64,000 bases of DNA from Giardia intestinalis (Eukaryota): NCBI GenBank assembly GCA_000002435.2, contig CM018792.1. One strand, written 5' to 3'. The notes beneath the pieces are model-generated. The model made no database searches and had not been told where the DNA came from. It saw nothing but the letters and a program-made list of their open reading frames with translations. Positions within the stretch are counted from its first letter, which is position 1. Each line of letters begins with the position of its first letter. The position numbers were made by a program, and so were the translations under genes. Positions 35,332 through 55,900 of the stretch are shown piece by piece.

Positions 35332-35699
35332 TATATTTATTTTAAGAAGAGATTTACTCCGTGTTAACAGACGAGCTTGCCACCCGCTGCCCGAGCAGGC
35401 CCGCTGGGGCCTCTCCCCCGCCCTGCGCGGTTGACCCCGAGAGCCTGGAGGCCGCCCGATTCTGGGGAGGGGAGGGGTGTCGCGCCTCCTCGCTCTGAGC
35501 GTCGTGACCTTGCTCTTGCGACACCGTCTGGGCTTCTCCTTTCTCTCACTCAGCCCCCTTGGGGCCAACTTCTGTATGGAGTGGAAAGCAGTGATCTTGG
35601 CCACGTAGCCTAGGGCCTTGGTACTCTATGACGAAGATTGCATACGCCATGAACCTCGGGATGGCCCGAAGCTCACCGGATACTTTCTTGTCATCTCGT

Positions 35700-37751
35700 G
35701 GAGCGGGTGTCCGTCCCACTATCAAGGGTGTGCTCCCCGTATGCCTCTATCTTGGAGTTAGAGTACGCACTCATGGATGCCGGCGGACAGCTCCCATGCG
35801 TTGGTGCCGAGGAAGAGGTCCAGCCCTGGTTTGCCTTCCCGCTCGACCCGTCCTTCTGCTCATGGACCACAGCGCGCCTCTTGTGCAGTGCTAGGAGACG
35901 CATACCGACAGACATTGCGCCTTGCCACGTCACTGGCCGGATCTTCCTGCTCGCGGTTGGCATGCGGCTCCTCGTCTGTCTGAACAAGGCAGTGGGGGTT
36001 GGAGTGGCAGAACTAGAGCGTGTTTGCCAGAGGCGCTAGTCTGCCGGCTAGAGGCGGAGTCGAGCGATGCCTGCCCAGAGATGCTCGCTCGGCTGCGAGG
36101 AGCACTGCAGGGGGTTCCACGAGCGCGGGAAGGCTCCCTCCCCTAGAAGCCCCGAGGGCCCTCGCGTCCCCGAGTTCAGTCTCCAGGGGCTTTGCGGGCA
36201 TATGCGACGATCTGGGCGCAAGAGCCCTGGGTGGTCTCGAACTCCGGACGCACGCTTTCACCAGGGTTTCGCACCCGAGCGTCCTCAGATACCACCGGGT
36301 AATCAGAACGAGCTGCTTTGTCTACACAACCATGGACCGCGGCCACAGAAGTCTAGGACAACTCCTCCTTGAGCACATGCAGGCCGACGAGCCGGTCGCT
36401 GAGGGCCTGGTGTTGTCCATCATGGAGCAGCTTTCTACCGGGCTTACCTACCTCCATGACGTCTGCTGGGAGGACGCCAGCGGAGCGCCCTGCCAGGGAA
36501 TCGTCCACTAGAGCCTCACGCCCGCCGACGCCCTCATTAGACAGGACGAACAGCGCGTCGTGCTCGCAGACTTCGCGTCCACAGAAACGCTCTGCACAGT
36601 GGCAGTGCGGAGGCAGAGGGCCCCGCGTACACGGATCCTGAAGCCCTCAGATGGCGCGGCCTCCGATCTCTGGGCCCTTGGTGCTATCGCATGCGAGCCT
36701 GCCACTTTGAAGGGGCCGAGCTTCCTGGACGGGTAAGACGCAAAGGCCCCTTTGTCGCCGGATGGAAGCCGAATCTGGGCCTTGTTGTGAAGGATCTCGT
36801 GTGGGATGTCCTCGGGAGGGTCTTTGCCTCAGACCCCGAGTGGTGACCAACAGCCACCAAGCTCGCCAGCCTGCTTCTGCGTGCGGGACGTCTGCTGTGG
36901 GCCCGGATCTCCAGGCCGGCGAGTTGGCAAGCACGGGCGAGTCTCTGCGGCCAGTGCCGAGTCTGTCCTTTCGAGGCAGGGCCCGAAGATGCCGCTCAGC
37001 ATATCAGAGGCATTGGCGCATCCATCGGGCCGTTCCACCAAAGGGCGGGAGCAGCACACTGCAGACGGGCACGGGGCTTCCATCGAATCGACCGACCAGG
37101 TTGCAGCGAGCGGCACGAGGTCCCTATCCTTCCGGGTCCCTGCGAAGGACTCCTCGTGGACCCGGCTGATGCGCGCTGCCGTTACTGGAGATCTCAAGAC
37201 GGCACAGAAGCACCTTGGTGAAAAGGACAAGAAGAACGAGGCGGCGACGCGGTGTACACTCCTGCCGTCAAGGCCGGACAGGGGCCGATGCTGGAGCTCC
37301 TTGACCTTACGGATAAGGCCGGGTCACGGCGCTCATGAGGGCTGCGGACAGAGGAGACGCAGAGGCAGTGAGGCTTCTGGTGAAGCACGAGGACGGCATG
37401 AGGGATGACGATGATTGACGGCGCTCATGATAGCAGCACGGTATCGCCATCCGGAATGCGTTAAGCTTGCTAGAGAGGGAAGCATGTATGACAGGCATAA
37501 GAGGCGCGACTGCTCTTGTGCATGCGGCGGCCAACGGCAGTGCCTTGTGCATACCCTTCCTCTTGGAGAAGGAGGCATGTGTGCAGGACGCCAGTGGCTG
37601 GTCTGCTCTCGCGTGGGCAACATATCTAGATAAGCCAGAGTGTGCGAAGCTTCTTATGGGGGAGGAGGACATAGAAATCACCCCCATAGCTGGAGGGTAT
37701 GCCGACGATGGCAACAATGGCAAGACCGGTGGCGACTATTGTCGACTATGA
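35700..37751 (+). pseudogene. NEK-type Ser/Thr kinase plus ankyrin-repeat pseudogene with a nonsense codon in the catalytic loop.
   Basis: Kinase subdomains IV-VIa in ORF 36020..36511 (HPSVLRYHRVIRTSCFVYTTMDRGHRSLGQLLLEHM...IMEQLSTGLTYLH). The frame then reads GIVH-TAG-SLTPADALIRQDEQRVVLADFA...ASDLWALGAI, that is HRDLKP, DFG and subdomain IX, with TAG (36496-36498) replacing the Arg of HRD and DFG changed to DFA. Ankyrin repeats are spread over three frames (WTRLMRAAVTGDLKTAQKHL; TALMIAARYRHPECVKLA; GATALVHAAANGSALCIPFLLEKEACVQDASGWSALAWATYLDKPECAKLL). Confidence 0.7.
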
Positions 37752-40301
37752 CGACTATGATTACTCGACTCCTATGACCACGATTATCATGCTCCTGACG
37801 ATCATGACGTTTACGATTGCTACGGTTACTAGTATTCTGATAACTATGATTTTCATAATCCTTTTGAATGCGATTCCTTATGTGGCGCCACAGCTCTTGA
37901 GCTAGAGGATGGATCATCGAGGGATAGTGGAGGTTCTTTCAACGCGACTGCAGGGTACTAACGGGCTTCTCTACAGGCACACCTTTATACAACTGCCAAT
38001 CTGTTTGCAGCAGTAAAGCTGCGTCACCGCAGTGGCCTAGGGGCTGCTCGATCTATAATTCCGCAAGGGGCAGGCTGATAAAGCAAAACTCTGCGGCCTA
38101 ATTTGTGCCCTGTACAGCCAGCAAGCAAATCCTCTGGACCGCCAGCAGAGCTGCTCGTTCAGCGGAGCGCCGTCTCGTAGGGAGAAGCGGGACGTCACTG
38201 TCAGGCCCAAGCGAGAGTGCCGGCGCCATGCGAACAGTCTCCGGTCCCTGGAGGCCGCCCCGGGTCACCGAAGGCAGGGTATCCTATTGCACAGTGCAGG
38301 CGCGTAGCAGCTAACAGAACCGGCGCAAGTGGCGGCCGAGCGGTGGCTTTTGCGCCTCTCCGAAGTGGGGAGACAGTGTCCAGAAGGCGCGAGGTTCCCG
38401 CGATTTGTCTGGAGCCAGCCGGGAGCGTCACAGAAAAAGCATCTTGAGGGCTCCCTAGGTGCAGTGGCAAAGGGACGTCCGCTGCTTCTTCGCCAGCGGC
38501 TTGCCCGGTGGACCACAGGGCCTCCTAGGCCGCCAAGCGCGAACACAGCTGCGATGAGTGGCTACTGTACGCCCTTGTGACACAGAGTGGACGTGCAGGA
38601 TGCCAGCGACGTGCTGAGGAAGGCTTTATTACCCTCCTGCTGTCTGTGCACCTGCTCCTGGTAAGGATGCTGAGCCCATGCTTACAAGCCACGGCCCCTT
38701 TGAGAGTGGCCAAAGCCGGTGCTCGAGCAGAGATAGATGGCTGCCTCGCAGATCTCGAATCGCTGCGCATGCCGGTCCAGAGAGACACCGATCAGCCCGT
38801 CACTAGGGATGAGGATCCAGGCATGAGAATCGCCAGCCTCCCGCGCCTCGGATGGACCCAGGCGATGGTGGTACGGGGCTAAGGGTCCTGCTACATCCGG
38901 GCAGACCAGGCATTGCCTCTGAACATGACATCAGGTCAGGGCCCTGTCGCGGACAGAGGGGCGAGGCTAGAAGCCAGCCGAGGCGGAGCAGCTGCATAGA
39001 CGGGAGCGCAGGTTATTATGGCAGCAGACTTCCACAGACGAGGGAGCCCGCGCTCTACTCCAGGATGAAACAGCGACGCCCCAGAGTGCGGCCCCGAACC
39101 ATGCTGCACCCCTCCTTTTGTGGCGCGGGAAGACTGCATGCACTTCAACCACGATGCATCCGGCCTTGAACACTGTGCGGAAAGACAGGCGGCCAGTGCG
39201 ATTCATGCGACGCAAGGAAGATGCCTCACCTTCTGATGCCCTACAATGCGGGGAACATAGCCCCCTGCGCACGGGCTGTCTGCTTAAGGACGGCAAGCAC
39301 ATGGAACCAGGCATGAACGGAACCGGGTCTTGATAGCGGCACGGCTGTCTTCAAGGGAAGGGTGATCTCTTGTCTCTTTAAGCAAGACGTGCTGGATCGC
39401 ACAAGCTTACGATTGGGTGAGGAAGGCTTCTGCATGCAACTCTCTGGCATGACCTAGCTGCAAACAGGCGGCAGCGAAGAGCGGACAGCGGGCTCCAGTC
39501 GTGCGGAAGGAGGATGCACCTGCCTGAGGCTACACGCAGTCATCAGGCGGGGCGTTCTCTGCAGAGGTTACGTGCTATGCAGGGTCGTGTCAAACCGAAG
39601 GACCACTCTTAGATGAGCCAGACCAAGGTGCCCCCATCCGCGCGAGACAGGCCTGTCAGATATATGGCATGCCTGCGAAAGTGAGCGCCGACAGGCAGGG
39701 GCCCGGGTAGACCTGGCGTCCTGGCCCAGAGAGTGAACGAGGACGGCCCGCGATACTTGTCCAGCCGAAGTATGAACGCTATGATGCCCCGGGTTGGACA
39801 AGCAACTCTTAGCGCCCCCCCTGAGAGGCTGCAGAGGACGGGCTTCTGGATGGAGGGACGACCCCAGCCAGGCAGACGTGATCACAGAAGAAGGGGCGCT
39901 GGAACCCGGAACAGTGGCTGACGACTGCGTGTCTGCGCGATGCAGTGCCCACTACTGTCAGTCGGCACACGGCGGTCGGCAGGACGCAGAGCTGCAGAGT
40001 GCTGGAGGCGCCGAGCGAGGCCAGTCTCGCTCATGGGACAGAGGCTGCCTGAGCCCCGCAGTCCTGCGAGCCTCTGGACGGTGGCAACAAGAGACCTTTC
40101 ATGGTACGCATCTGCCTGGATGGCGGCGTGATCCCAGAGCCGGCATCGTACCACTTCACGAGCATCACGATCGCTGTGTCCCCCACGATGGTCACTCGGG
40201 CAGTAGTCAGGTGCAGGGCATGGCGGCTCTTCCCTGTCCCCCAGCAGGACCTCGTAAGAGTAGAGTAGATTGTATAACGATGGACGCGTTTACTATCTAA
40301 G

Positions 40302-42524
40302 TCACGCCTTGCCCCTACATATGAACCACCAGCAGAGGAAGCCCACGAGGCCCCCAACGACGACGATGACTGCGACGGAGATGCCCGCGATGGCCCCCGT
40401 GGAGAGCCCGCTCTTATTCGTGCTTCCGCCAGTATTGTCGCCGGTATTATCATCCGTTTCGAAACATATGAACTTGCCGTTAACAGGTGTCGCGCACTGC
40501 CTGCATCCAGCCAGCCCCTCGGAGCACTTTCTGCACGGCCCATTACTACTACTCTCCTTGTAATATCCAGGAGTACATACCTTGCATGTAGTAGCATCGG
40601 CTTCGCAGGTGTAGCAACTTTCGTGGCATTTCGTGCAGGCACTGCCGACCTTCACATATCCGTCCATGCACCTAGAACAGTCCCTAGTGGTGGTGCACTC
40701 AGCGCACCCAGTGTAGCAAGCCACAAGGCTCTCGCCTGTCAGGCTAAATCCTTCTTCCGGAGTCTTGCAGGTTCCGCCTGTACTCTGCGCACTCAAGCAC
40801 ACTGTCGACCCCGGAAGCTGGCTGGTGGAGTAGCAGCCGCCGTTCATCTTGAAGAAGCCGTCTGCGCAGACATTGCACACGCCACCAGTAATGCTTCCAT
40901 CTTTGCACTTATCTGTGCGACTGGTTTTAACAGCACAGACGCCGTTCTGGGGATACTCGTTGTTTTGACTACAGACAGAGCAGTATTTTGTCCCCTCAAC
41001 AGTCAGACCGCACTCCCTGCACTTGCCTGTGCCTGTGCCCGCCGCGCACTCGGCCCCACATGTGCCAGTGTTTCCTGTGGATCCGTAGGTGAGCGCGCTT
41101 CCAGACTTACAGCTTGTGCAATCATTGGCAGTATTTCCGCTACATGTCTTACAGCTGGAATCGCAAGGGGAGCACGCTTCGCCGTAGAAGCCGTCCTTAC
41201 AGAGACCGCACCCGCCATTTTCACTGCACGCGAGACAGTTGGCGACCTCGCACTTCTTGCAGACCCTCTTGTTGCCCTCTGTGCTACTGTAGTAGCCTAG
41301 AATATATTCGCAGTGGTCTATGCACTGGTTTGTTGGCGTCAGATACTTGTTGGACAGACATTCGGTGCAGATCTCTTTGTTTGTTTGTGCACCACTGCAT
41401 GCCTTACAATCCTGAGTACTGCATGGATTTGAAGGGGAATCATTTGGCACGCATTGTGTTTCTTCTTCGTCAAGTTTAAATCCATCATTGCACGTGCAAG
41501 TATTCTCGGTCTTGGCTTCTGAGTTATCAGGGCAGCTACTAATGCACGACTTCTTTCCGAGTCCAAATACCATATTTTCCTTACACGCTGTGCAGGTAAC
41601 GGAGGTGTCACTTTTGGTGCATGTTTTGCAGTTCTCAAACGTTCCTGCCGTGCACGGCTTGCACGTCTTCGGCTCCTCATCGTCGGCGTAGTGGGTGTTT
41701 CCACTCGTGCACGCTTCCTCAGTCACGCACTCGCCTGCCTGATCCTGTGACTGCGCCTTCTTTAGGTACGGCTTGTCCTCATTGCAAGAGGTGCACTTCG
41801 TAGCCTCGGTCTCACAGGTCTTGCATGTCTCAGCGCACTTGGTGCATTTTTTACTGCCTGTTGCATCGACGAAGAAGCCTGCAGTACTCGTGCACTCATG
41901 TTCCGTCACACACGACGTCACGTCGCCGTCCGTCTTAACAATCCTCGCGGTTTGCTGCGCATCAGGGCCGCACGCAGTACACTTAGCAACTCCACTGGCC
42001 TCTACCGTTAATTGTAATCCGTCACAGGCAGTGCACCCATCCACGCCCGTGTACTTCTTATTGCCAGTAAGCGTCACGCCTATCGAATCTCCGCACGAAA
42101 CAACCGAGTCGTGCGCATTATCAGCGCCCGGCGGTAGAAAGTATCCTTCCGTAGCCTGTGTGCACTTACCACCAGCTGCTCCTCCACACATCACATTGCC
42201 AGGCTCAATAGCTTGTTCGTAACACCCGCCCTTGTACATAAAAGTCTGACCAGCGCACTTTGCACAGGTCTCATCAGATGCAGTATTTCCATCGGCAGCT
42301 GTACATTTATCTGTTACATCATCTTTGCCTACACATTTTCCATTGATAGGAACAAATCCTGTGTTACATTGAGAGCAATACAATTTACCACCGATCAGAA
42401 CGTTGCATGCGTTTGCTGCACAATTGGCGTTATTCGCGCAGTGAGCTTCCCGCGCACGTTCTGCTACTTTTTCTGCCCATGCAATCTGGATGGCTAGGCC
42501 CGCGAATATAAAACTGCCGAACAT
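40302..42524 (-). CDS. vsp: Variant-specific surface protein (VSP), 740 aa, copy 1 of an identical pair.
   Basis: Signal peptide MFGSFIFAGLAIQIAWA. About 12% Cys with many CXXC motifs. C-terminal TM plus the invariant Giardia VSP tail GGLVGFLCWWFICRGKA. AGTAAAC polyA signal 7 nt after the stop (40288..40294 on the minus strand). Confidence 0.93.
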   Translation of the reverse strand: MFGSFIFAGLAIQIAWAEKVAERAREAHCANNANCAANACNVLIGGKLYCSQCNTGFVPINGKCVGKDDVTDKCTAADGNTASDETCAKCAGQTFMYKGGCYEQAIEPGNVMCGGAAGGKCTQATEGYFLPPGADNAHDSVVSCGDSIGVTLTGNKKYTGVDGCTACDGLQLTVEASGVAKCTACGPDAQQTARIVKTDGDVTSCVTEHECTSTAGFFVDATGSKKCTKCAETCKTCETEATKCTSCNEDKPYLKKAQSQDQAGECVTEEACTSGNTHYADDEEPKTCKPCTAGTFENCKTCTKSDTSVTCTACKENMVFGLGKKSCISSCPDNSEAKTENTCTCNDGFKLDEEETQCVPNDSPSNPCSTQDCKACSGAQTNKEICTECLSNKYLTPTNQCIDHCEYILGYYSSTEGNKRVCKKCEVANCLACSENGGCGLCKDGFYGEACSPCDSSCKTCSGNTANDCTSCKSGSALTYGSTGNTGTCGAECAAGTGTGKCRECGLTVEGTKYCSVCSQNNEYPQNGVCAVKTSRTDKCKDGSITGGVCNVCADGFFKMNGGCYSTSQLPGSTVCLSAQSTGGTCKTPEEGFSLTGESLVACYTGCAECTTTRDCSRCMDGYVKVGSACTKCHESCYTCEADATTCKVCTPGYYKESSSNGPCRKCSEGLAGCRQCATPVNGKFICFETDDNTGDNTGGSTNKSGLSTGAIAGISVAVIVVVGGLVGFLCWWFICRGKA

Positions 42525-43439
42525 TAACCAATCTGGTAGATTGATAGGAACAGAATCGCGATATATTCAGCCAATCCGTGTGACTGACACATGATGATGA
42601 TGATGATTTACTCCACCCACCGGTTGCTTCCAGTGGTGTGCTGCTGGGGCCCTCGCCTGCAGGCGCTGTCCGCAAATCTCGCGAGTAAATTCCCGCTCAA
42701 TTTTTGGCGATGTCCGGAGATGAGGGTTGGTCACGGGCCGTAACGATAATCACAGCGGTTGTAAGGAGGAGCTATCTGCATTCCTCGGCTGTTCCGTGGG
42801 CATGCGCACACAACCGGACCTGAAACGAAGGAGAGCCCGCAAGGACCCGATCCACATCATGAACGCAAGATCGTACCTTCGGGCCCCCAGAGAGCAAGCC
42901 GTGAGTCTCTACTTGGGAGACCACTCCAAAGACGCTTGCCCTCTCGGCAGGACACACACGCTGGCTCTGTGGCCTACCGTGCAAGAGTGCCAACAATCAA
43001 CCGAGCACCTGAGAGAAGCAAATGATAACAGACACAGAGTACTAGGTGACGACAAACTGATCATTCCATCCCATATACCGAACCAGACAGCTGCCATGCT
43101 CATCCACCAGGGTGCAGCATGATCGCGAGCATCGAGCAGGCCGGGACTGGGGTAGCGCTCCCCGCTATCAGGGGCCTGAACGCCTTGGTAGGAAACTGCT
43201 AGAAGACTCAAGCAACACAGCAGAGCAGACCCAGAGCAAGGCGGACCCAGACCCCGAGAAGGCGAGACGCCGGATAGCAAACAGGGTGAACAACGCGCTG
43301 AGTTTCGGGGCAGTTGCCAAGGCCCTCCGCGCCCTTGATGACACGCCCACGATAGACAAGCCGGAGAAGGCCGACCGCCCTCAGCGCGCTACACCTGTGC
43401 GTCCCCCCGAAGGCTACGTTGGCCTTGACTACCCTCCAT

Positions 43440-45110
43440 CGATGAGCTCGACGGGCTGGAGTGGCAACCGAAGAAGAAATGAGGAAGGCTCTGTTTGAGA
43501 CTCTCAACAAGAAGGCCTCGGGCCGGTCCAGCTCAAGGCGATGAAGCAGAGCGACAGCTTCGTGAAGTACCTCACGCAGGCATACAACGAGCTGACCACC
43601 CACCCCGAGGCGATGCCAGAGGTGATGGCCATGCTCGAGTTCCGGGCGATCCTCATCCCGAAGGAGTCCGACGGATACCGCCCGATCGCGATAGGCGAGA
43701 CGGTGACAAACATCTTCCACCGCGTCCTGCTGAAGGGCTGATCAGGCATGCCAACTACCTCTTGTGCGAACAGATCGCCTTCATGCAGAACGCATACGCG
43801 GTAGGCGTGAGGAGGGCCCACGAGCTCATCAGCAGGACAGGAGCACGCCGTCTCCCTCGACACAAAGAACGCCCTCAACTCGCTCCCGAGGGCGGAGGTC
43901 GTCAGAGCCCTGAACGAGGCGGGCGTCCCGAAGGTCCTGGTCGACTACATCGGGGACTTCCTCGACCTGAGGCACAGCCGGGACGTGAAGTGCGAGGTCT
44001 GCGGCGTCCCCCAGGGCGACCCGCTCAGCATGCTCCTCTTCTGCATGGCCACCGAGCGCCTCCTGAGACGCCTCAGGGAGAGGGGCATCACCTTCCTTGC
44101 CTATGCGGACGACATCGTGGCGTTCCACGACGAGGCCTACCCAGCAGGCGTGATAACACAGCTGGCCATGGGCCTGACGATCAGGAGCGACAATGCAAGT
44201 CCACCATGGCGGGCGAGGAGGTGACCTTCCCCAACCACCCGGTGTCCCCCACTCCTGCCAGTCTCGCGCCGAAGGCCATCGCAGGTGCCGAGACTGCCCT
44301 GAGGAAGATTGAGAACGCCCCCATAACCACCCACCAGAAGCTCATCCTGATGTCACTCTGCGTGGTCCCGATGGTGAACTACGCCCCCCTGGTCGAGATA
44401 ACATCGGATAAGGCGGACTACAAGGAGCTGACAGATATCGCACAAGGCTTCAGCAAGCTAACCAGCAGAAGCTGCGATCGCCTGGTCGACTTCCTGGCGT
44501 ACCAAAGGAGAAGGGCGGCCCGGGCCTGCTCATGCCGGGGTTCTACCACGACGAGCTGCGGAGAGCATGGGCCTCCCTGGACGTCAACAAGGGGACCAGA
44601 GACCCGGTGGAGCTGCCGGTGGAAGGCCAGGCACTGCAAGGGAAGGGGACCTACTCCAACCGCCTCCTCACGCATACACCAGCTTCCGGACAGAGCGGCG
44701 GCGTGCTGACCGAGGAGGAAAGGGCCCTGAAGCAGAGAGATGGCTCGATCATGGGGCAGACAAGAGGCACCTGCCCGGGCTGCCACACGGCAAGGACCCT
44801 CGACCGCGACATGATCGTCACGTGCCTGTACCTCCGCGTCTCAGGGAAGTTCAACGCAGAGCTGGAGGTCAAGACCCACAGCCACCTCAGCGGCCAGAAC
44901 CAGAAGCCCGACATCTGGTTCGTCGACAAGTGCAAGGCGATAGATGTGGGTGTCATCCAGCCCCGCCAGATGGACGCCTACTACAACGAGAAGGTCAAGA
45001 AGTACAGGGACGGGACGCTCCCGATCATCTACGGGACAGACGGATCCCTCCACCCAAGTCCAAGGGGCACCTCGAGGAGCTCCACGTGGACCTCTGTCCG
45101 GGCTGCCTTC
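43440..45110 (+). mobile_element. Degenerate non-LTR retrotransposon (Giardia GilD/Genie-like: RT plus CCHC plus REL-endonuclease) with at least 3 frameshifts, filling the palindrome spacer.
   Basis: RT motif 0 (EEEMRKALFETLNKKASGP..QLKAMK, about 43470-43560, frameshifted). Motifs 1-2 (AILIPKESDGYRPIAIGETVTNIFHRVLLK, 43541..43741). Motif A (VSLDTKNALNSLPRAEVV), B (CGVPQGDPLSMLLF) and C (FLAYADDIVAF) in a second frame (about 43840..44222). Thumb in a third frame (ALRKIENAPITTHQKLILMSLCVVPMVNYAPLVE). Then CPGCH...C and a PD-(D/E)xK block (KPDIWFVDKCKAIDVGV) in ORF 44532..45359. No frame is intact across them. Confidence 0.8.
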
Positions 45111-45766
45111 GCCATCGCCCACATGGCTGCAAAGGCGAACGAGCACCCGACGAAGCTGATCAGACGGGCCGGGCCGAAAGCCTGGCCACCCAGAGCGACC
45201 GTCTCCTGTCATCCTACTTCTGACAACCGAATGAGTCCATCCCCGGGACCTGTCGACAACGACCGAGAAGGGGCGCAAGACTGGACACACAACCGAGTTG
45301 AATCCCAACCAGAAGAGAAAGCCCCGCTAGCTGCTGCTGATATACATGGACAGTATTGAGAATGACAACAAAGACCAGAGCTTCACTCACCGTGAAGGGA
45401 GAGCAAGGAGAGGCACCCTAGTAGACCAGCAAGCCTGCAGGACGGCTTGATCTCTGAAAGAACCGATGTGCACACCCAGTCTGAGCTCACGCCCACGGAA
45501 CAGCCGAGGAATGCAGATAGCTCCTCCCTTCCACTACTGTGGTCTTTGTATTGATACACGACCAACCCTCGTCTCCGGACTAGTCAGGGACTGAGCAAGA
45601 GCTTACCCGTGAGATCTCTGGACCATACCTGCAGGCGAGGGCCCCAGCAGCACACCACTGGAAGCAACCGGTGGGTGGAGTAAATCATCATCATCATCAT
45701 GTGTCAGTCACACGGATTGGCTGAATATATCGCGATTCTGTTCCTATCAATCTACCAGATTGGTTA

Positions 45767-47989
45767 ATGTTCGGCAGTTTTATATTCGCGGGCCTAGCCA
45801 TCCAGATTGCATGGGCAGAAAAAGTAGCAGAACGTGCGCGGGAAGCTCACTGCGCGAATAACGCCAATTGTGCAGCAAACGCATGCAACGTTCTGATCGG
45901 TGGTAAATTGTATTGCTCTCAATGTAACACAGGATTTGTTCCTATCAATGGAAAATGTGTAGGCAAAGATGATGTAACAGATAAATGTACAGCTGCCGAT
46001 GGAAATACTGCATCTGATGAGACCTGTGCAAAGTGCGCTGGTCAGACTTTTATGTACAAGGGCGGGTGTTACGAACAAGCTATTGAGCCTGGCAATGTGA
46101 TGTGTGGAGGAGCAGCTGGTGGTAAGTGCACACAGGCTACGGAAGGATACTTTCTACCGCCGGGCGCTGATAATGCGCACGACTCGGTTGTTTCGTGCGG
46201 AGATTCGATAGGCGTGACGCTTACTGGCAATAAGAAGTACACGGGCGTGGATGGGTGCACTGCCTGTGACGGATTACAATTAACGGTAGAGGCCAGTGGA
46301 GTTGCTAAGTGTACTGCGTGCGGCCCTGATGCGCAGCAAACCGCGAGGATTGTTAAGACGGACGGCGACGTGACGTCGTGTGTGACGGAACATGAGTGCA
46401 CGAGTACTGCAGGCTTCTTCGTCGATGCAACAGGCAGTAAAAAATGCACCAAGTGCGCTGAGACATGCAAGACCTGTGAGACCGAGGCTACGAAGTGCAC
46501 CTCTTGCAATGAGGACAAGCCGTACCTAAAGAAGGCGCAGTCACAGGATCAGGCAGGCGAGTGCGTGACTGAGGAAGCGTGCACGAGTGGAAACACCCAC
46601 TACGCCGACGATGAGGAGCCGAAGACGTGCAAGCCGTGCACGGCAGGAACGTTTGAGAACTGCAAAACATGCACCAAAAGTGACACCTCCGTTACCTGCA
46701 CAGCGTGTAAGGAAAATATGGTATTTGGACTCGGAAAGAAGTCGTGCATTAGTAGCTGCCCTGATAACTCAGAAGCCAAGACCGAGAATACTTGCACGTG
46801 CAATGATGGATTTAAACTTGACGAAGAAGAAACACAATGCGTGCCAAATGATTCCCCTTCAAATCCATGCAGTACTCAGGATTGTAAGGCATGCAGTGGT
46901 GCACAAACAAACAAAGAGATCTGCACCGAATGTCTGTCCAACAAGTATCTGACGCCAACAAACCAGTGCATAGACCACTGCGAATATATTCTAGGCTACT
47001 ACAGTAGCACAGAGGGCAACAAGAGGGTCTGCAAGAAGTGCGAGGTCGCCAACTGTCTCGCGTGCAGTGAAAATGGCGGGTGCGGTCTCTGTAAGGACGG
47101 CTTCTACGGCGAAGCGTGCTCCCCTTGCGATTCCAGCTGTAAGACATGTAGCGGAAATACTGCCAATGATTGCACAAGCTGTAAGTCTGGAAGCGCGCTC
47201 ACCTACGGATCCACAGGAAACACTGGCACATGTGGGGCCGAGTGCGCGGCGGGCACAGGCACAGGCAAGTGCAGGGAGTGCGGTCTGACTGTTGAGGGGA
47301 CAAAATACTGCTCTGTCTGTAGTCAAAACAACGAGTATCCCCAGAACGGCGTCTGTGCTGTTAAAACCAGTCGCACAGATAAGTGCAAAGATGGAAGCAT
47401 TACTGGTGGCGTGTGCAATGTCTGCGCAGACGGCTTCTTCAAGATGAACGGCGGCTGCTACTCCACCAGCCAGCTTCCGGGGTCGACAGTGTGCTTGAGT
47501 GCGCAGAGTACAGGCGGAACCTGCAAGACTCCGGAAGAAGGATTTAGCCTGACAGGCGAGAGCCTTGTGGCTTGCTACACTGGGTGCGCTGAGTGCACCA
47601 CCACTAGGGACTGTTCTAGGTGCATGGACGGATATGTGAAGGTCGGCAGTGCCTGCACGAAATGCCACGAAAGTTGCTACACCTGCGAAGCCGATGCTAC
47701 TACATGCAAGGTATGTACTCCTGGATATTACAAGGAGAGTAGTAGTAATGGGCCGTGCAGAAAGTGCTCCGAGGGGCTGGCTGGATGCAGGCAGTGCGCG
47801 ACACCTGTTAACGGCAAGTTCATATGTTTCGAAACGGATGATAATACCGGCGACAATACTGGCGGAAGCACGAATAAGAGCGGGCTCTCCACGGGGGCCA
47901 TCGCGGGCATCTCCGTCGCAGTCATCGTCGTCGTTGGGGGCCTCGTGGGCTTCCTCTGCTGGTGGTTCATATGTAGGGGCAAGGCGTGA
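45767..47989 (+). CDS. vsp: Variant-specific surface protein (VSP), 740 aa, copy 2. Identical to 40302..42524 and head-to-head with it.
   Basis: Identical 740-aa translation ending ...FLCWWFICRGKA. AGTAAAC polyA signal at 47997..48003. Confidence 0.93.
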   Translation: MFGSFIFAGLAIQIAWAEKVAERAREAHCANNANCAANACNVLIGGKLYCSQCNTGFVPINGKCVGKDDVTDKCTAADGNTASDETCAKCAGQTFMYKGGCYEQAIEPGNVMCGGAAGGKCTQATEGYFLPPGADNAHDSVVSCGDSIGVTLTGNKKYTGVDGCTACDGLQLTVEASGVAKCTACGPDAQQTARIVKTDGDVTSCVTEHECTSTAGFFVDATGSKKCTKCAETCKTCETEATKCTSCNEDKPYLKKAQSQDQAGECVTEEACTSGNTHYADDEEPKTCKPCTAGTFENCKTCTKSDTSVTCTACKENMVFGLGKKSCISSCPDNSEAKTENTCTCNDGFKLDEEETQCVPNDSPSNPCSTQDCKACSGAQTNKEICTECLSNKYLTPTNQCIDHCEYILGYYSSTEGNKRVCKKCEVANCLACSENGGCGLCKDGFYGEACSPCDSSCKTCSGNTANDCTSCKSGSALTYGSTGNTGTCGAECAAGTGTGKCRECGLTVEGTKYCSVCSQNNEYPQNGVCAVKTSRTDKCKDGSITGGVCNVCADGFFKMNGGCYSTSQLPGSTVCLSAQSTGGTCKTPEEGFSLTGESLVACYTGCAECTTTRDCSRCMDGYVKVGSACTKCHESCYTCEADATTCKVCTPGYYKESSSNGPCRKCSEGLAGCRQCATPVNGKFICFETDDNTGDNTGGSTNKSGLSTGAIAGISVAVIVVVGGLVGFLCWWFICRGKA

Positions 47990-47996
47990 CTTAGAT

Positions 47997-48003
47997 AGTA
48001 AAC
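47997..48003 (+). terminator. Giardia polyadenylation signal AGTAAAC (AGTRAAY) 7 nt after the VSP stop. Its mirror is at 40288..40294 on the minus strand.
   Basis: Exact match to the AGTRAAY consensus, which normally lies within about 10-30 nt downstream of the stop codon in Giardia mRNAs. Confidence 0.7.
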
Positions 48004-50539
48004 GCGTCCATCGTTATACAATCTACTCTACTCTTACGAGGTCCTGCTGGGGGACAGGGAAGAGCCGCCATGCCCTGCACCTGACTACTGCCCGAGTGAC
48101 CATCGTGGGGGACACAGCGATCGTGATGCTCGTGAAGTGGTACGATGCCGGCTCTGGGATCACGCCGCCATCCAGGCAGATGCGTACCATGAAAGGTCTC
48201 TTGTTGCCACCGTCCAGAGGCTCGCAGGACTGCGGGGCTCAGGCAGCCTCTGTCCCATGAGCGAGACTGGCCTCGCTCGGCGCCTCCAGCACTCTGCAGC
48301 TCTGCGTCCTGCCGACCGCCGTGTGCCGACTGACAGTAGTGGGCACTGCATCGCGCAGACACGCAGTCGTCAGCCACTGTTCCGGGTTCCAGCGCCCCTT
48401 CTTCTGTGATCACGTCTGCCTGGCTGGGGTCGTCCCTCCATCCAGAAGCCCGTCCTCTGCAGCCTCTCAGGGGGGGCGCTAAGAGTTGCTTGTCCAACCC
48501 GGGGCATCATAGCGTTCATACTTCGGCTGGACAAGTATCGCGGGCCGTCCTCGTTCACTCTCTGGGCCAGGACGCCAGGTCTACCCGGGCCCCTGCCTGT
48601 CGGCGCTCACTTTCGCAGGCATGCCATATATCTGACAGGCCTGTCTCGCGCGGATGGGGGCACCTTGGTCTGGCTCATCTAAGAGTGGTCCTTCGGTTTG
48701 ACACGACCCTGCATAGCACGTAACCTCTGCAGAGAACGCCCCGCCTGATGACTGCGTGTAGCCTCAGGCAGGTGCATCCTCCTTCCGCACGACTGGAGCC
48801 CGCTGTCCGCTCTTCGCTGCCGCCTGTTTGCAGCTAGGTCATGCCAGAGAGTTGCATGCAGAAGCCTTCCTCACCCAATCGTAAGCTTGTGCGATCCAGC
48901 ACGTCTTGCTTAAAGAGACAAGAGATCACCCTTCCCTTGAAGACAGCCGTGCCGCTATCAAGACCCGGTTCCGTTCATGCCTGGTTCCATGTGCTTGCCG
49001 TCCTTAAGCAGACAGCCCGTGCGCAGGGGGCTATGTTCCCCGCATTGTAGGGCATCAGAAGGTGAGGCATCTTCCTTGCGTCGCATGAATCGCACTGGCC
49101 GCCTGTCTTTCCGCACAGTGTTCAAGGCCGGATGCATCGTGGTTGAAGTGCATGCAGTCTTCCCGCGCCACAAAAGGAGGGGTGCAGCATGGTTCGGGGC
49201 CGCACTCTGGGGCGTCGCTGTTTCATCCTGGAGTAGAGCGCGGGCTCCCTCGTCTGTGGAAGTCTGCTGCCATAATAACCTGCGCTCCCGTCTATGCAGC
49301 TGCTCCGCCTCGGCTGGCTTCTAGCCTCGCCCCTCTGTCCGCGACAGGGCCCTGACCTGATGTCATGTTCAGAGGCAATGCCTGGTCTGCCCGGATGTAG
49401 CAGGACCCTTAGCCCCGTACCACCATCGCCTGGGTCCATCCGAGGCGCGGGAGGCTGGCGATTCTCATGCCTGGATCCTCATCCCTAGTGACGGGCTGAT
49501 CGGTGTCTCTCTGGACCGGCATGCGCAGCGATTCGAGATCTGCGAGGCAGCCATCTATCTCTGCTCGAGCACCGGCTTTGGCCACTCTCAAAGGGGCCGT
49601 GGCTTGTAAGCATGGGCTCAGCATCCTTACCAGGAGCAGGTGCACAGACAGCAGGAGGGTAATAAAGCCTTCCTCAGCACGTCGCTGGCATCCTGCACGT
49701 CCACTCTGTGTCACAAGGGCGTACAGTAGCCACTCATCGCAGCTGTGTTCGCGCTTGGCGGCCTAGGAGGCCCTGTGGTCCACCGGGCAAGCCGCTGGCG
49801 AAGAAGCAGCGGACGTCCCTTTGCCACTGCACCTAGGGAGCCCTCAAGATGCTTTTTCTGTGACGCTCCCGGCTGGCTCCAGACAAATCGCGGGAACCTC
49901 GCGCCTTCTGGACACTGTCTCCCCACTTCGGAGAGGCGCAAAAGCCACCGCTCGGCCGCCACTTGCGCCGGTTCTGTTAGCTGCTACGCGCCTGCACTGT
50001 GCAATAGGATACCCTGCCTTCGGTGACCCGGGGCGGCCTCCAGGGACCGGAGACTGTTCGCATGGCGCCGGCACTCTCGCTTGGGCCTGACAGTGACGTC
50101 CCGCTTCTCCCTACGAGACGGCGCTCCGCTGAACGAGCAGCTCTGCTGGCGGTCCAGAGGATTTGCTTGCTGGCTGTACAGGGCACAAATTAGGCCGCAG
50201 AGTTTTGCTTTATCAGCCTGCCCCTTGCGGAATTATAGATCGAGCAGCCCCTAGGCCACTGCGGTGACGCAGCTTTACTGCTGCAAACAGATTGGCAGTT
50301 GTATAAAGGTGTGCCTGTAGAGAAGCCCGTTAGTACCCTGCAGTCGCGTTGAAAGAACCTCCACTATCCCTCGATGATCCATCCTCTAGCTCAAGAGCTG
50401 TGGCGCCACATAAGGAATCGCATTCAAAAGGATTATGAAAATCATAGTTATCAGAATACTAGTAACCGTAGCAATCGTAAACGTCATGATCGTCAGGAGC
50501 ATGATAATCGTGGTCATAGGAGTCGAGTAATCATAGTCG

Positions 50540-52591
50540 TCATAGTCGACAATAGTCGCCACCGGTCTTGCCATTGTTGCCATCGTCGGCATACCCTCCA
50601 GCTATGGGGGTGATTTCTATGTCCTCCTCCCCCATAAGAAGCTTCGCACACTCTGGCTTATCTAGATATGTTGCCCACGCGAGAGCAGACCAGCCACTGG
50701 CGTCCTGCACACATGCCTCCTTCTCCAAGAGGAAGGGTATGCACAAGGCACTGCCGTTGGCCGCCGCATGCACAAGAGCAGTCGCGCCTCTTATGCCTGT
50801 CATACATGCTTCCCTCTCTAGCAAGCTTAACGCATTCCGGATGGCGATACCGTGCTGCTATCATGAGCGCCGTCAATCATCGTCATCCCTCATGCCGTCC
50901 TCGTGCTTCACCAGAAGCCTCACTGCCTCTGCGTCTCCTCTGTCCGCAGCCCTCATGAGCGCCGTGACCCGGCCTTATCCGTAAGGTCAAGGAGCTCCAG
51001 CATCGGCCCCTGTCCGGCCTTGACGGCAGGAGTGTACACCGCGTCGCCGCCTCGTTCTTCTTGTCCTTTTCACCAAGGTGCTTCTGTGCCGTCTTGAGAT
51101 CTCCAGTAACGGCAGCGCGCATCAGCCGGGTCCACGAGGAGTCCTTCGCAGGGACCCGGAAGGATAGGGACCTCGTGCCGCTCGCTGCAACCTGGTCGGT
51201 CGATTCGATGGAAGCCCCGTGCCCGTCTGCAGTGTGCTGCTCCCGCCCTTTGGTGGAACGGCCCGATGGATGCGCCAATGCCTCTGATATGCTGAGCGGC
51301 ATCTTCGGGCCCTGCCTCGAAAGGACAGACTCGGCACTGGCCGCAGAGACTCGCCCGTGCTTGCCAACTCGCCGGCCTGGAGATCCGGGCCCACAGCAGA
51401 CGTCCCGCACGCAGAAGCAGGCTGGCGAGCTTGGTGGCTGTTGGTCACCACTCGGGGTCTGAGGCAAAGACCCTCCCGAGGACATCCCACACGAGATCCT
51501 TCACAACAAGGCCCAGATTCGGCTTCCATCCGGCGACAAAGGGGCCTTTGCGTCTTACCCGTCCAGGAAGCTCGGCCCCTTCAAAGTGGCAGGCTCGCAT
51601 GCGATAGCACCAAGGGCCCAGAGATCGGAGGCCGCGCCATCTGAGGGCTTCAGGATCCGTGTACGCGGGGCCCTCTGCCTCCGCACTGCCACTGTGCAGA
51701 GCGTTTCTGTGGACGCGAAGTCTGCGAGCACGACGCGCTGTTCGTCCTGTCTAATGAGGGCGTCGGCGGGCGTGAGGCTCTAGTGGACGATTCCCTGGCA
51801 GGGCGCTCCGCTGGCGTCCTCCCAGCAGACGTCATGGAGGTAGGTAAGCCCGGTAGAAAGCTGCTCCATGATGGACAACACCAGGCCCTCAGCGACCGGC
51901 TCGTCGGCCTGCATGTGCTCAAGGAGGAGTTGTCCTAGACTTCTGTGGCCGCGGTCCATGGTTGTGTAGACAAAGCAGCTCGTTCTGATTACCCGGTGGT
52001 ATCTGAGGACGCTCGGGTGCGAAACCCTGGTGAAAGCGTGCGTCCGGAGTTCGAGACCACCCAGGGCTCTTGCGCCCAGATCGTCGCATATGCCCGCAAA
52101 GCCCCTGGAGACTGAACTCGGGGACGCGAGGGCCCTCGGGGCTTCTAGGGGAGGGAGCCTTCCCGCGCTCGTGGAACCCCCTGCAGTGCTCCTCGCAGCC
52201 GAGCGAGCATCTCTGGGCAGGCATCGCTCGACTCCGCCTCTAGCCGGCAGACTAGCGCCTCTGGCAAACACGCTCTAGTTCTGCCACTCCAACCCCCACT
52301 GCCTTGTTCAGACAGACGAGGAGCCGCATGCCAACCGCGAGCAGGAAGATCCGGCCAGTGACGTGGCAAGGCGCAATGTCTGTCGGTATGCGTCTCCTAG
52401 CACTGCACAAGAGGCGCGCTGTGGTCCATGAGCAGAAGGACGGGTCGAGCGGGAAGGCAAACCAGGGCTGGACCTCTTCCTCGGCACCAACGCATGGGAG
52501 CTGTCCGCCGGCATCCATGAGTGCGTACTCTAACTCCAAGATAGAGGCATACGGGGAGCACACCCTTGATAGTGGGACGGACACCCGCTCC
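50540..52591 (-). pseudogene. Second copy, identical and mirrored, of the NEK kinase plus ankyrin pseudogene.
   Basis: Mirror of 35700..37751. The same TAG sits in the HRD position (ORF 51780..52271(-) ends GIVH-stop). Confidence 0.7.
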
Positions 52592-52953
52592 ACGAGATGA
52601 CAAGAAAGTATCCGGTGAGCTTCGGGCCATCCCGAGGTTCATGGCGTATGCAATCTTCGTCATAGAGTACCAAGGCCCTAGGCTACGTGGCCAAGATCAC
52701 TGCTTTCCACTCCATACAGAAGTTGGCCCCAAGGGGGCTGAGTGAGAGAAAGGAGAAGCCCAGACGGTGTCGCAAGAGCAAGGTCACGACGCTCAGAGCG
52801 AGGAGGCGCGACACCCCTCCCCTCCCCAGAATCGGGCGGCCTCCAGGCTCTCGGGGTCAACCGCGCAGGGCGGGGGAGAGGCCCCAGCGGGCCTGCTCGG
52901 GCAGCGGGTGGCAAGCAAATTCTACAAAGATTTACTTCTAAGAACGTAAAGGA

Positions 52954-55900
52954 TTAGATCTTGTATTCTTGACATCCCAATATGATTCCTTCTTCAGCTG
53001 CCTGTCTTACATCGTCTGCCTTTCCAAAAACAACAGTTTGACCAGAGATAACGGCTTCAAATGAAACAGCAGCACTCTTAAGGTCATTAATGGTCATGCG
53101 ACGAATTTGGCCAACAGCTCTTCTGTAATCGTTAACACTGTTGCCTTCTAACCAGTAGTCAACGGCCTGGGTAAAGCGAACTAACGGGGCCAAATCCATT
53201 TGGCGCTTACCGACGGCGCCTATTTTGAAGAAAAGAAGCTCTTCAGCAGTTAAGGTAAGGCGGTCGATATATTCTTTAATCTCATCAAACACCTTCTTTG
53301 TTTCTACCAATTGAGGATCTAAGTATGTTGTTAGATAGGACCAGCGTGATCTGGATAAAATAAAGAAGCAGCCACAAGCTCCATTTTCTATTCGTATCTT
53401 TTTTGCAAGATAATCGTAAGTGATGATATGCAAAAGCAATAATTCCGCACCAGTCAGCTCTGTCAACGGAAGCCGGCCACTTCGAGCAACATAATTAACG
53501 TTGACGGGAGCCGCCACAGAGAGCATCCTATGCTGTATGTCTTGTTCCATTTTGAGGAAGCGCTGAGAGTCCTTTTCTGGGGGGCACAAGTCCTTCTTAT
53601 GCAACTTGACCGGGGTAGTTAGAAAGTGCGCGGCATGTTCAGTTATTGGGAATATGTCTGGCTTCATATTCCACTTGTTTATATCGTAAGTATGTGTTGA
53701 GTATTTGTCGTGTATAATAGCTTGAAGCTTTTGAACTATTAGCAGCCCATTAATAATTTTATCTACCACGGCTTGCGTATTGCTGGTGATAATGCGCTTA
53801 TTCATGAAGGGTTCAAGTTCAGGGACATTTAAGCCAATACAAACAGCAATCGATGTGTGCCTTTGCAGAAGCCTTGCATACATGTTCTTCAGCTTCCTTG
53901 ACATAACAATAGCTATCTTCAAATCATCATCGGTCAATGTGTATACATTATGCTTGATGCATTCCTCATCAAAATCAAGTCCGTTGGCGGAGGAAATTTC
54001 GGAGTCAGCCGGGGGCTCCAGCAAAGTCTTCTTCAGGTATTCCAGATAATTGATCCCATTAACATACTCATCATAGATGGCCCCGATACTCCCAGATAGT
54101 GCCATGGCACGCGTGTAAGCGATGTAGTAGCCCATTTTCTGTAAGAAGTGGCTCTCCATTTGCTCCTTATGGCTGTGAAGTATCTTGAATACTAGCTCCA
54201 GATTGCCCAATCCAACCATTGACTTTTGCCAGATTTCGCTGAGTATAAGGTGAAGGGCCTGATCCGTTTTGCTTTCTAAGAATGAAGCATCTATCCTTAT
54301 ATAGGCACGTGGGTATGTTTCTGACGCATTCAGTGTGTGTACGGTTGAATAACGATACTCCATAGAGACGCGGAACTTTCCTAGGACATTGCTAATTGCT
54401 AGCTGCAGCTGCTCCGGAGATTCATAGTTCTCTGTACTGACATTTCCGAGCATCGCACCTGCTAAGAAAGAGATCAAAGGCGCCTCTTCAAAGGTCACCA
54501 GTTCAGAGACGTCAATAAACATACTAAAGTGAACAATTCCATTTCCCAGACTTCCTGTATTATACACGTTTATGGGGACATCATTAAGGTGAACTCCTGG
54601 GCTATTGTGTTTGGAAAGCGATCGAGAAAATATGCGTAGCTGCAAGTAGTCATCTTCAAGAGAGACTAGGTCTGCTTCCGAGACCTGAGGAAACTCCCTG
54701 AGCACCTTCTCGTCGACTTCATTAGAGCGATTGAGTACAGCCAGTGTTTGTGCAACTAAGCCGTTTATCTCCTTCTCTGACATCATACTCTTTTTGTCCT
54801 GGAGCTCTCTTTGCTTGGCTTCTGCTATGTCCTCAGCAAGACCTGGTGTTGGGGTCAAAATAGCATCCTTCCAGGCTTTGTTGTCAATGTAGTATCTTCT
54901 AAGGAGTTCGCGCATATATACACTTATGGTACCCTCTGCTATTTTCTCTCGTAACTCTAGGAATGCCCCTTCAAACAGTAACTCTTCTTCTGGGGTCACA
55001 TTGTAGAACCAAGAGCCGAAAAGTGAGGTCAGAACCTTGACGCCATAGTTAGTCTGATGCTCACGAAGCTCAAACTCAAGTCTGTCCATCTCTGACGAGA
55101 TTCGGGTTGGAGAAAGATAAAACATATAGTCGGAAAGCGGATCCTGCTCTGTTCGCGTACTATTCTCATTCTCCAAAAGAAGGAAGACACGATCAAGCTC
55201 TCTGCGCAGACGACTAGTGGAATCTTCATCATATTCGCACCCGTGAAGACAAATATATGTGTATCCTTGGCAGTTAGTATCATCAGTCTCCACAGATAGT
55301 TCTGAAATAAGGCCCAACTTCTGTAGATGAGCAAGGACAGGAGAGGAAGTGGCACCAAATAAAATTCCAGAAAGGGTGTCAAGCGCTAAGCGCTCTGTTC
55401 GCGTGACTTCGTTAATGTTGAAAGTACGCCACATACGTACCAAATAGCCTTGTCGAAAGCCTACTTGAGATTCCTTTGCGATAGGGTAAGAGAGGCGCAA
55501 TGGTTCTATGCACGCGTTGATGGGTAAAGCGCCTGCTAAAATAGGGGCCTTTTTAACAATGTAAGGAGCCAGCTCTTCGCTGCTCATAGATTCTAGAGGC
55601 TGCAGATATCTATCATATATCAGTGAGAGCTCCTTCTCTAATGGGAGAGTAGAATGGTAGGCTATACGACCGTTTGCCATGGTATAGTGAGTGCTGTGGT
55701 ACTCGACAAGATCATCCGGCTCTAAGGTGACGATGTGATCAGGGTGTCCAATAGATGTATACATGAGACTGCCTCCATCGAATAGAGCCTGCTTAAGAGC
55801 GTGCACAGCGATGTGGATGGGCTCTGAGAAGGCCACTGTTAGCTCATTAAGGATGGCGCCTCGCAGCTCCAGCTCTGACGTATTGCTCATAAGGTGCATG

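Follow-up and report, generated by a model that had tools for sequence, protein, structure and literature searches.

Genes for variant-specific surface proteins (VSPs) underlie antigenic variation in Giardia, and ~20 exist as perfect mirror-image pairs. A set of 14 inverted pairs with identical members, 2.2-3.8 kb apart, was reported by Adam et al. (2010), together with an abrupt loss of identity, for which the smallest distance quoted was 139 bp (PMC2996952). Xu et al. later recorded a reverse transcriptase (RT) remnant between four of the seven divergent identical VSP pairs of the WB isolate (PMC7000408), and a preprint has placed retrotransposon relics both between and around duplicated VSP pairs (10.1101/2022.03.07.483299). 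Giardia lamblia also harbors a 'dead' family of retrotransposons of the non-LTR (non-long terminal repeat) type, named GilD by Arkhipova and Morrison (2001) and Genie 2 by Burke et al. (2002), and its copies are found in gene-poor DNA beside vsp genes and are typically disrupted by microhomology-mediated deletions (Arkhipova, PMC2861651). Here we analyzed a 64,000-nucleotide stretch of Giardia intestinalis WB (GenBank assembly GCA_000002435.2, contig CM018792.1; hereafter the window), in which a dead element fitting the GilD/Genie 2 description sits at the center of a palindrome that carries two identical VSP genes. The inner ends of this palindrome lie inside what sequence comparison identifies as the element's own terminal inverted repeats, which is a refinement of existing knowledge about such pairs rather than a discovery. 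Genie 2 copies were reportedly found by Burke and colleagues in 2002 to carry inverted repeats of up to ~172 bp. Palindromes nucleated by short inverted repeats are familiar from Tetrahymena ribosomal DNA, from fold-back amplification in yeast and mammals, and from human DUP-TRP/INV-DUP rearrangements, and arm-to-arm gene conversion occurs in the palindromes of the human Y chromosome.

The arms of the window palindrome are perfectly complementary over 7,289 nt (35375-42663 versus 45628-52916; zero mismatches), with an axis of symmetry at 44145.5 according to a repeat search and arm comparison. The whole module spans 17,542 bp (35375-52916), and its arms and spacer have a G+C content of ~0.5-0.65 versus ~0.44 in the flanks. 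Positions 42663 and 45628, between which an earlier note on this DNA had placed the element, proved to be the exact ends of perfect arm identity, and the loss of identity there is abrupt, as the 36 nt directly inside the perfect arms contain 13 mismatches. The arms and their VSP genes are as follows:

35375..42663, no strand: left perfect arm, which carries one VSP gene, kinase/ankyrin pseudogene remnants, a piece of a second non-LTR family and, from the left terminal repeat of the element, the outer 57 nt
45628..52916, no strand: right perfect arm, the mirror image of the left arm with 0 mismatches
40302..42524, - strand: VSP gene of 740 aa with a CRGKA tail, member of the GL50803_0050229/d50229 pair (open reading frame list; PMC7000408 Table 2)
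45767..47989, + strand: identical VSP gene of 740 aa, divergent from its twin (open reading frame list; PMC7000408 Table 2)

The two VSP open reading frames (ORFs) are divergently oriented (<- ->) and 3,242 bp apart, and arm identity ends 139 nt upstream of the VSP ATG (42524 to 42663), which equals the smallest figure quoted in PMC2996952. The window pair shares the features of the identical inverted VSP pairs of WB, namely identical ORFs in inverted orientation, a separation of 2-4 kb (here a ~3-kb spacer), an abrupt end of identity and, as at several others, an RT remnant between the genes. Table 2 of Xu et al. (2020) lists a chromosome 4 pair, 50229/d50229, as "<- ->", 740 aa and 3242 bp, with "psiRT" between (PMC7000408), and because the protein length, spacing, orientation and psiRT all match, the locus is the published inverted pair GL50803_0050229/d50229 of G. 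intestinalis WB. An exact-product look-up returned no record for the VSP or for the product of the neighboring Nop14 gene described below. The novelty implied by the earlier note therefore does not hold: the RT remnant between this exact pair is already known from the reference-genome paper (PMC7000408), the adjacency of GilD and vsp genes from PMC2861651, and the relics around pairs from 10.1101/2022.03.07.483299. The accessible parts of the VSP-pair papers (PMC2996952, PMC7000408, 10.1101/2022.03.07.483299) contain no description of the element's terminal repeats, of a junction within them, of arms 7.3 kb in length at this locus or of an insertion between PreP and Nop14 genes.

The coding remnant of the central element was traced by tblastn with in-frame relatives, with phase defined as the coordinate modulo 3:

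42607..45684, + strand: complete unit of the dead non-LTR retrotransposon fitting the GilD/Genie 2 type, 3,078 bp with both terminal inverted repeats (blastn to sibling copies)
43250-43460, + strand: N-terminal region, phase 2 (tblastn)
43464-43523, + strand: coding segment, phase 0 (tblastn)
43514-43741, + strand: RT fingers, phase 2 (tblastn)
43756-43850, + strand: coding segment, phase 1 (tblastn)
43810-44194, + strand: RT palm, phase 2 (tblastn)
43514..44194, + strand: RT remnant overall, with motifs 1-2, A, B and C, frame changes and stops (Pfam RVT_1, tblastn)
44191..44499, + strand: thumb-like region, phase 1, in a frame different from that of the RT palm (tblastn with P0001, P0002 and P0004; weak colinear R2 thumb match)
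44475..45167, + strand: remnant of a restriction-like (PD...D...K) endonuclease, preceded by a linker and a truncated CCHC knuckle, phase 0 (tblastn with P0002, 74% identity; R2 profile matches)
44800..44810, + strand: window-specific 45-nt deletion between two 10-nt CACGACATGA direct repeats (four-copy alignment and protein comparison)
45169-45231, + strand: tail, another phase (tblastn)

The RT is recognizable from the ORF at 43985-44224, which matches Pfam RVT_1 with E=3.1e-10 (its relatives score 5e-18 to 2e-27), and the frameshift-corrected conceptual protein has its best relatives among Giardia proteins, the top one being DHA2_154256 of the DH isolate (E=2e-196, with 66% identity at 79% coverage). 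Together with the R2 profile match described below, the tblastn path bears out, well above chance, the earlier note's picture of a dead non-LTR element with RT, thumb, CCHC and restriction-like endonuclease in that order, split over at least three frames: all three frames are used, at least seven frame changes occur, and three to four stops fall within the RT high-scoring segments. The 45-nt deletion takes out the His and the last Cys of the zinc knuckle, so that the CCHC finger named in the note stands in its family order but is not intact in this copy. Because of the frame changes, the stops and the broken zinc knuckle, the window copy is dead, and a single intact ORF cannot be restored from it.

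For the endonuclease region, a profile was built from both related lineages and the window's own translation. Its significant matches were to R2 proteins only (8gh6_A, E=2.2e-5; 9nl3, 9dou, 8ibw and 9nl2, 2e-4 to 7e-4), and all of them fall on the CCHC and restriction-like endonuclease segment of R2, with the C..C..H..C, RH(D/N), E, KPD, D-V and K..KY motifs aligned; R2Bm is matched at residues 933-1033, together with three other R2 proteins. It should be noted that Pfam returned no match on the endonuclease ORFs and that a single-sequence PDB search with the endonuclease was marginal (E=0.8). The element therefore shares with R2-type non-LTR elements the order of RT, thumb, CCHC and PD-(D/E)xK endonuclease, with an RT domain in place and, at the family level, a CCHC motif and then an endonuclease C-terminal to it, although the knuckle of the window copy is truncated. 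The similarity to R2 is distant, however, terminal inverted repeats are not an R2 feature, and the window copy is non-functional, with no specific target site evident. All tested features fit the assignment to GilD/Genie 2 made in the earlier note, an assignment based upon described features. The copies are degenerate, the position is interstitial, non-telomeric and vsp-adjacent, the unit is ~3 kb in length, a microhomology-mediated deletion is present, and terminal inverted repeats of 170-204 nt occur in the window and in two sibling copies (L001 and L003). None of the named GilM, GilT and GilD proteins was among the relatives from the homology searches. The 7.3-kb inverted-repeat extension of the window is far longer than the inverted repeats that have reportedly been described for this family.

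The relationship between the element and the palindrome is evident at the terminal repeats:

42607..42810, + strand: left terminal inverted repeat, ~204 nt, its outer 57 nt (42607-42663) within the perfect arm
45482..45684, - strand: right terminal inverted repeat, its outer 57 nt (45628-45684) within the perfect arm
42765..42801, + strand: 37-nt terminal-repeat core, perfect between the ends, with its partner at 45491-45527 on the minus strand (motif search, 2 matches versus 0 expected by chance)
45581..45627, no strand: hyper-diverged 47-nt patch in the right terminal repeat, bordering the arm junction on its inner side, with 16 transitions and 3 transversions versus the family consensus

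Perfect arm identity does not stop at the edge of the element, but 57 nt inside its terminal repeat. At both ends, these outer 57 nt share two window-specific G>A changes that are absent from six other termini, and since both ends carry such private changes, the outer part of the repeat was presumably copied from side to side together with the arm. The arms enter the repeat with private changes on both sides, which argues that they were copied or homogenized after the element was in place and had diverged from its relatives. The position of the element on the axis, which the earlier note had emphasized, is real, and its YADD box (44102-44113) does lie 32-43 nt from the axis, close to the ~30 bp proposed. 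However, this centrality holds no independent information, because the element is the loop between the repeats and hence the spacer itself (42607+45684 = 2 x 44145.5).

The 47-nt patch stands out among the termini of the family, as the corresponding region has only 0-1 differences in six of seven other termini; in the remaining one, at the left end of L002, it has nine. Candidate causes of the patch are conversion from another copy, break-associated mutagenesis, or an old variant of the repeat that escaped homogenization. Its transitions comprise C>T, G>A, A>G and T>C, four of each, and ~6 derived states plus a 1-nt deletion are held in common with the L002 left terminus. Near the outer end of the terminal repeat, all copies have a small hairpin, CCACCGG-TTGCTT-CCGGTGG (window 42614-42633 and its mirror; L003 8554-8573), in which the window has one G>A change in both arms. 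We also considered whether the terminal repeats are far better conserved than the body of the element, but this was rejected, as identity is fairly even along the unit. A metagenome scan with the terminal-repeat motif returned no matches.

The sibling copies reveal to which unit these repeats belong. Over the exact 3,078-bp span, the window unit has 86-88% identity (blastn) to two copies from isolate DH, L001 884-4054 and L003 8546-11672, and the DH copies are likewise split into several ORFs. The L003 copy is located between a NOT2-domain gene and an EamA-type gene, without a vsp gene, and its 170-nt terminal repeat, at 98% identity, is followed by 34 nt more and then by no inverted homology. 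The L001 copy lies between convergent VSP genes and exhibits inverted identity from the repeat to the contig ends, with 86% identity in the repeat rising to 99% further out. The termini of L002 and L016 match the same repeat and their contigs end inside it, as would be expected at an assembly break, while L017 is a 5'-truncated and more divergent copy. Thus, every full-length visible terminus (L001, L003) carries the family repeat, as anticipated by the earlier note's suggestion that other copies would be associated with inverted repeats. Because sibling copies have the repeats as well, including L003 without vsp gene or palindrome, comparison among the copies assigns the terminal repeats to the element family itself. 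The limits of homogenization vary between copies. Inward, the left and right repeats diverge at ~57 nt in the window, ~125 nt in L001 and ~170-200 nt in L003. Outward, inverted identity covers 7,232 nt in the window and at least 720 nt in L001, and in L003 its extent is 0 nt. Such varied inward and outward limits are what would result if recombination were seeded at the repeats again and again. No target-site duplication or 3' tail was seen at L003 or at the edges of the window module.

Two further observations concern these siblings. When L003 8546-8750 is compared with 11469-11672, its left terminal repeat has the right-side sequence type of the other copies, and its two repeats have therefore been homogenized further inward than those of the window or L001. 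In L001, the arms (280-561, 4379-4656) also hold what is left of another GilD copy's 3' end, ~290 nt in length and located ~640 nt beyond the main terminal repeat, which suggests nested or repeated events.

The genes that flank the palindrome allow its insertion site to be compared with that of another species:

32794..35331, - strand: Nop14 gene on the left flank (Pfam Nop14, E=2.6e-19), with its start codon 43 nt from the arm edge; orthologue of the PreP-adjacent gene of G. muris
52954..56355, - strand: PreP/M16 metalloprotease gene on the right flank, with its stop codon 37 nt from the arm edge

Beyond the PreP/M16 peptidase gene, the right flank continues with a Rav1 gene. In G. muris, PreP and Nop14 are neighbors in the same relative orientation, only 95 nt apart (gene coordinates 13246 and 13342; L015 10001-15564). 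Since this gap is so short, both arms are non-ancestral at the site. The WB module fills the PreP-Nop14 gap, so that only 43 nt of intergenic DNA separate it from Nop14 and 37 nt from PreP, and its arms end symmetrically at the insertion edges. Among the lineages compared, synteny across the interval was found in G. muris only. In assemblage B and two other lineages (L012 11171-12026, L013 11434-12340, L014 11700-11961), the DNA downstream of PreP does not align to the WB arm and the contigs end <1 kb past the gene, and the PreP-downstream interval seems to be a recurrent synteny break point.

The earlier note had offered two explanations for the central element, either palindrome formation driven by the element or structure-directed insertion of the element at cruciform tips. 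We prefer the first in a weaker form and regard it as moderately probable: the element would have come first, its repeats acting as passive inverted homology, and host repair or conversion would later have built, or would now maintain, the 7.3-kb arms. Four observations lead us to prefer it: perfect identity ends within the repeat, both ends share private substitutions, L003 has the repeat but no palindrome, and identity is graded in L001, where a convergent VSP pair of another isolate surrounds a copy of the element. The RT remnants between four of the seven divergent WB pairs also speak for it. With the element and its ~200-nt terminal inverted repeats in place, a broken or stalled DNA end may have folded back or switched template at the repeats, copying the flank, with its vsp gene and pseudogenes, in reverse. 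Arm-to-arm gene conversion would then stop where the repeats become too different, which is at the same inner junction. The arms would thus be the product of a host event at the DNA level without involvement of the element's enzymes, which are irrelevant here because the copy is dead. The sequence shows which locus this is, how it is built, that the copy is dead, that the repeat is a family trait and that the junction falls within it; the succession of events is inferred, as is the mechanism, be it fold-back, template switching or gene conversion. Like palindromes nucleated by short inverted repeats, the locus has a short inverted repeat at its center, a non-palindromic loop made up of what lies between the two repeats, a change from perfect to diverged sequence within the short repeat, and near-identical arms. 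It differs in that its arms are bounded at 7.3 kb and do not reach the chromosome end, in the lack of second-junction microhomology, and in that the module is an insertion relative to G. muris. If correct, the preferred reading would offer a testable mechanism for the origin or upkeep of the pairs, since the arms end in the repeat of a dead retrotransposon that is itself found elsewhere without a palindrome. Only tentatively would we extend it to GilD terminal repeats as a general seed of the identical VSP pairs of G. intestinalis, with the relic serving as a palindrome generator that doubles VSP genes along with kilobases of flank and with gene conversion keeping the arms identical to a point inside the repeat. 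Were that so, read-through of such palindromes could yield long hairpin RNA relevant to VSP control of the RNA interference type.

Several points weigh against the preferred reading. In G. muris, whose genome has very few retrotransposons, seven VSP pairs are identical and inverted, their members being separated by NEK, ankyrin or zinc-finger sequences (PMC7641422), and in WB 12 convergent pairs spaced by 2.5-2.8 kb, as well as three of the seven divergent pairs, have no annotated RT (PMC7000408). The G. muris and convergent WB pairs indicate that pair formation does not require the element. In addition, if one arm had simply been duplicated in place, the duplication must have stopped no more than ~40 nt from the edge of the original insertion, which is an unexplained coincidence, and neither microhomology nor a target-site duplication is evident at the outer arm edges. 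The order of events is not proven either, because inward gene conversion from an older palindrome would give the same junction, and short-read polishing could partly exaggerate the arm identity. The same pairs without retrotransposons support the view that there is no causal link at all, such that a general mechanism makes or homogenizes inverted vsp pairs and the dead element merely sits in the spacer, GilD relics being common in vsp-rich, gene-poor regions and GilD generally vsp-adjacent (PMC2861651). We consider this rather unlikely, as the ends of the arms fall within the repeat of the element and not at an arbitrary point of the spacer, the spacers of the pairs are consistently ~2.2-3.8 kb and thus near the size of the element (PMC2996952), and L001 and L002, from another isolate, exhibit identity or contig breaks outward from the repeat.

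The remaining explanations fare worse. The module might have arisen in one step coupled to retrotransposition, if a read-through RNA comprising the element and its downstream flank had been reverse-transcribed at the PreP-Nop14 gap and the 3' end of the complementary DNA had then primed its own second strand by folding back at the repeat. Such a course would account for arms that end symmetrically at an insertion into the ancestral 95-nt gap as well as for the inner junction inside the repeat. GilD, the right-hand VSP gene and the second-family relic of the right arm do all lie on the + strand, and the 5'-truncated L017 is a sign that the family may have moved by target-primed reverse transcription. 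We nevertheless judge it improbable, because it needs a 10-kb RNA and RT supplied in trans, neither a target-site duplication nor a 3' tail is seen, and Adam et al. saw identical vsp copies only within inverted pairs, which leaves no known source locus (PMC2996952). Furthermore, the outer arm edge is not a retroelement 3' end; its identification as the 3' end of the second-family relic was rejected, as its homology to that family gives out 226 nt from the edge, whereas that of other relics runs on. Insertion of the element at the center of a pre-existing palindrome, for instance through an endonuclease cut at a cruciform tip, is slightly less probable again. The exactly central position and the site specificity of some relatives with such an endonuclease are in its favor, and arm identity could have advanced the 57 nt into the element through subsequent gene conversion. 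However, centrality is automatic for anything that fills a spacer, and L003 demonstrates that the short inverted repeat travels with the element to a non-palindromic site and so belongs to the element rather than its target. The window-specific substitutions shared by both arms point to copying after the element was present, and this part of the earlier note is not supported. Lastly, a perfect identity of 7.3 kb would in principle raise suspicion, and pairs of this kind interrupted earlier assemblies (PMC2996952), but a falsely mirrored contig is highly improbable. A unique 2.9-kb spacer separates the arms, and the pair has been reported from both Sanger and PacBio assemblies (PMC2996952, PMC7000408). 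Independent reads, checked for the right outer side only, contain the right flank-arm junction, with 100% identity over 3,129 nt in a short-read assembly contig (L005). Four contigs from other runs (L004, L006-L008) end 67 nt past the end of the PreP gene, ~29 nt into the right arm, as would be expected at a true repeat edge.

The outer 4.9 kb of each arm (35375-40300; mirror 47991-52916) is without a long ORF and contains protein-kinase and ankyrin-repeat remnants of an NEK/ARP-type pseudogene. The ORF at 36020-36511 matches Pfam Pkinase (E=8e-4), and Ank_2 gene calls were made on the identical arm sequence in contig L005. A kinase-ankyrin gene also adjoins the L002 copy of the element. An Rfam scan of the palindromic module returned no matches. 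The arms additionally carry a relic of the second non-LTR family:

35601..35885, - strand: endonuclease-domain fragment of a second, P15-type non-LTR family, separate from the central element, mirrored at 52406-52690 on the + strand (tblastn with P0131 and P0133)

This second lineage, consisting of Giardia P15 'reverse transcriptase' relatives (P0004, P0131, P0133, P0007), has 36-41% amino acid identity to the GilD type and was found in assemblage E and in environmental assemblies. A longer dead copy of it lies near the start of the window (~1732-2981, + strand), and its endonuclease fragment is also present beside the L003 copy of the element (L003 7846-8300). Finally, directly outside the terminal repeat, the window has an (ATG)5 microsatellite (42591-42606, mirrored at 45685-45700) that is absent from the sibling copies.

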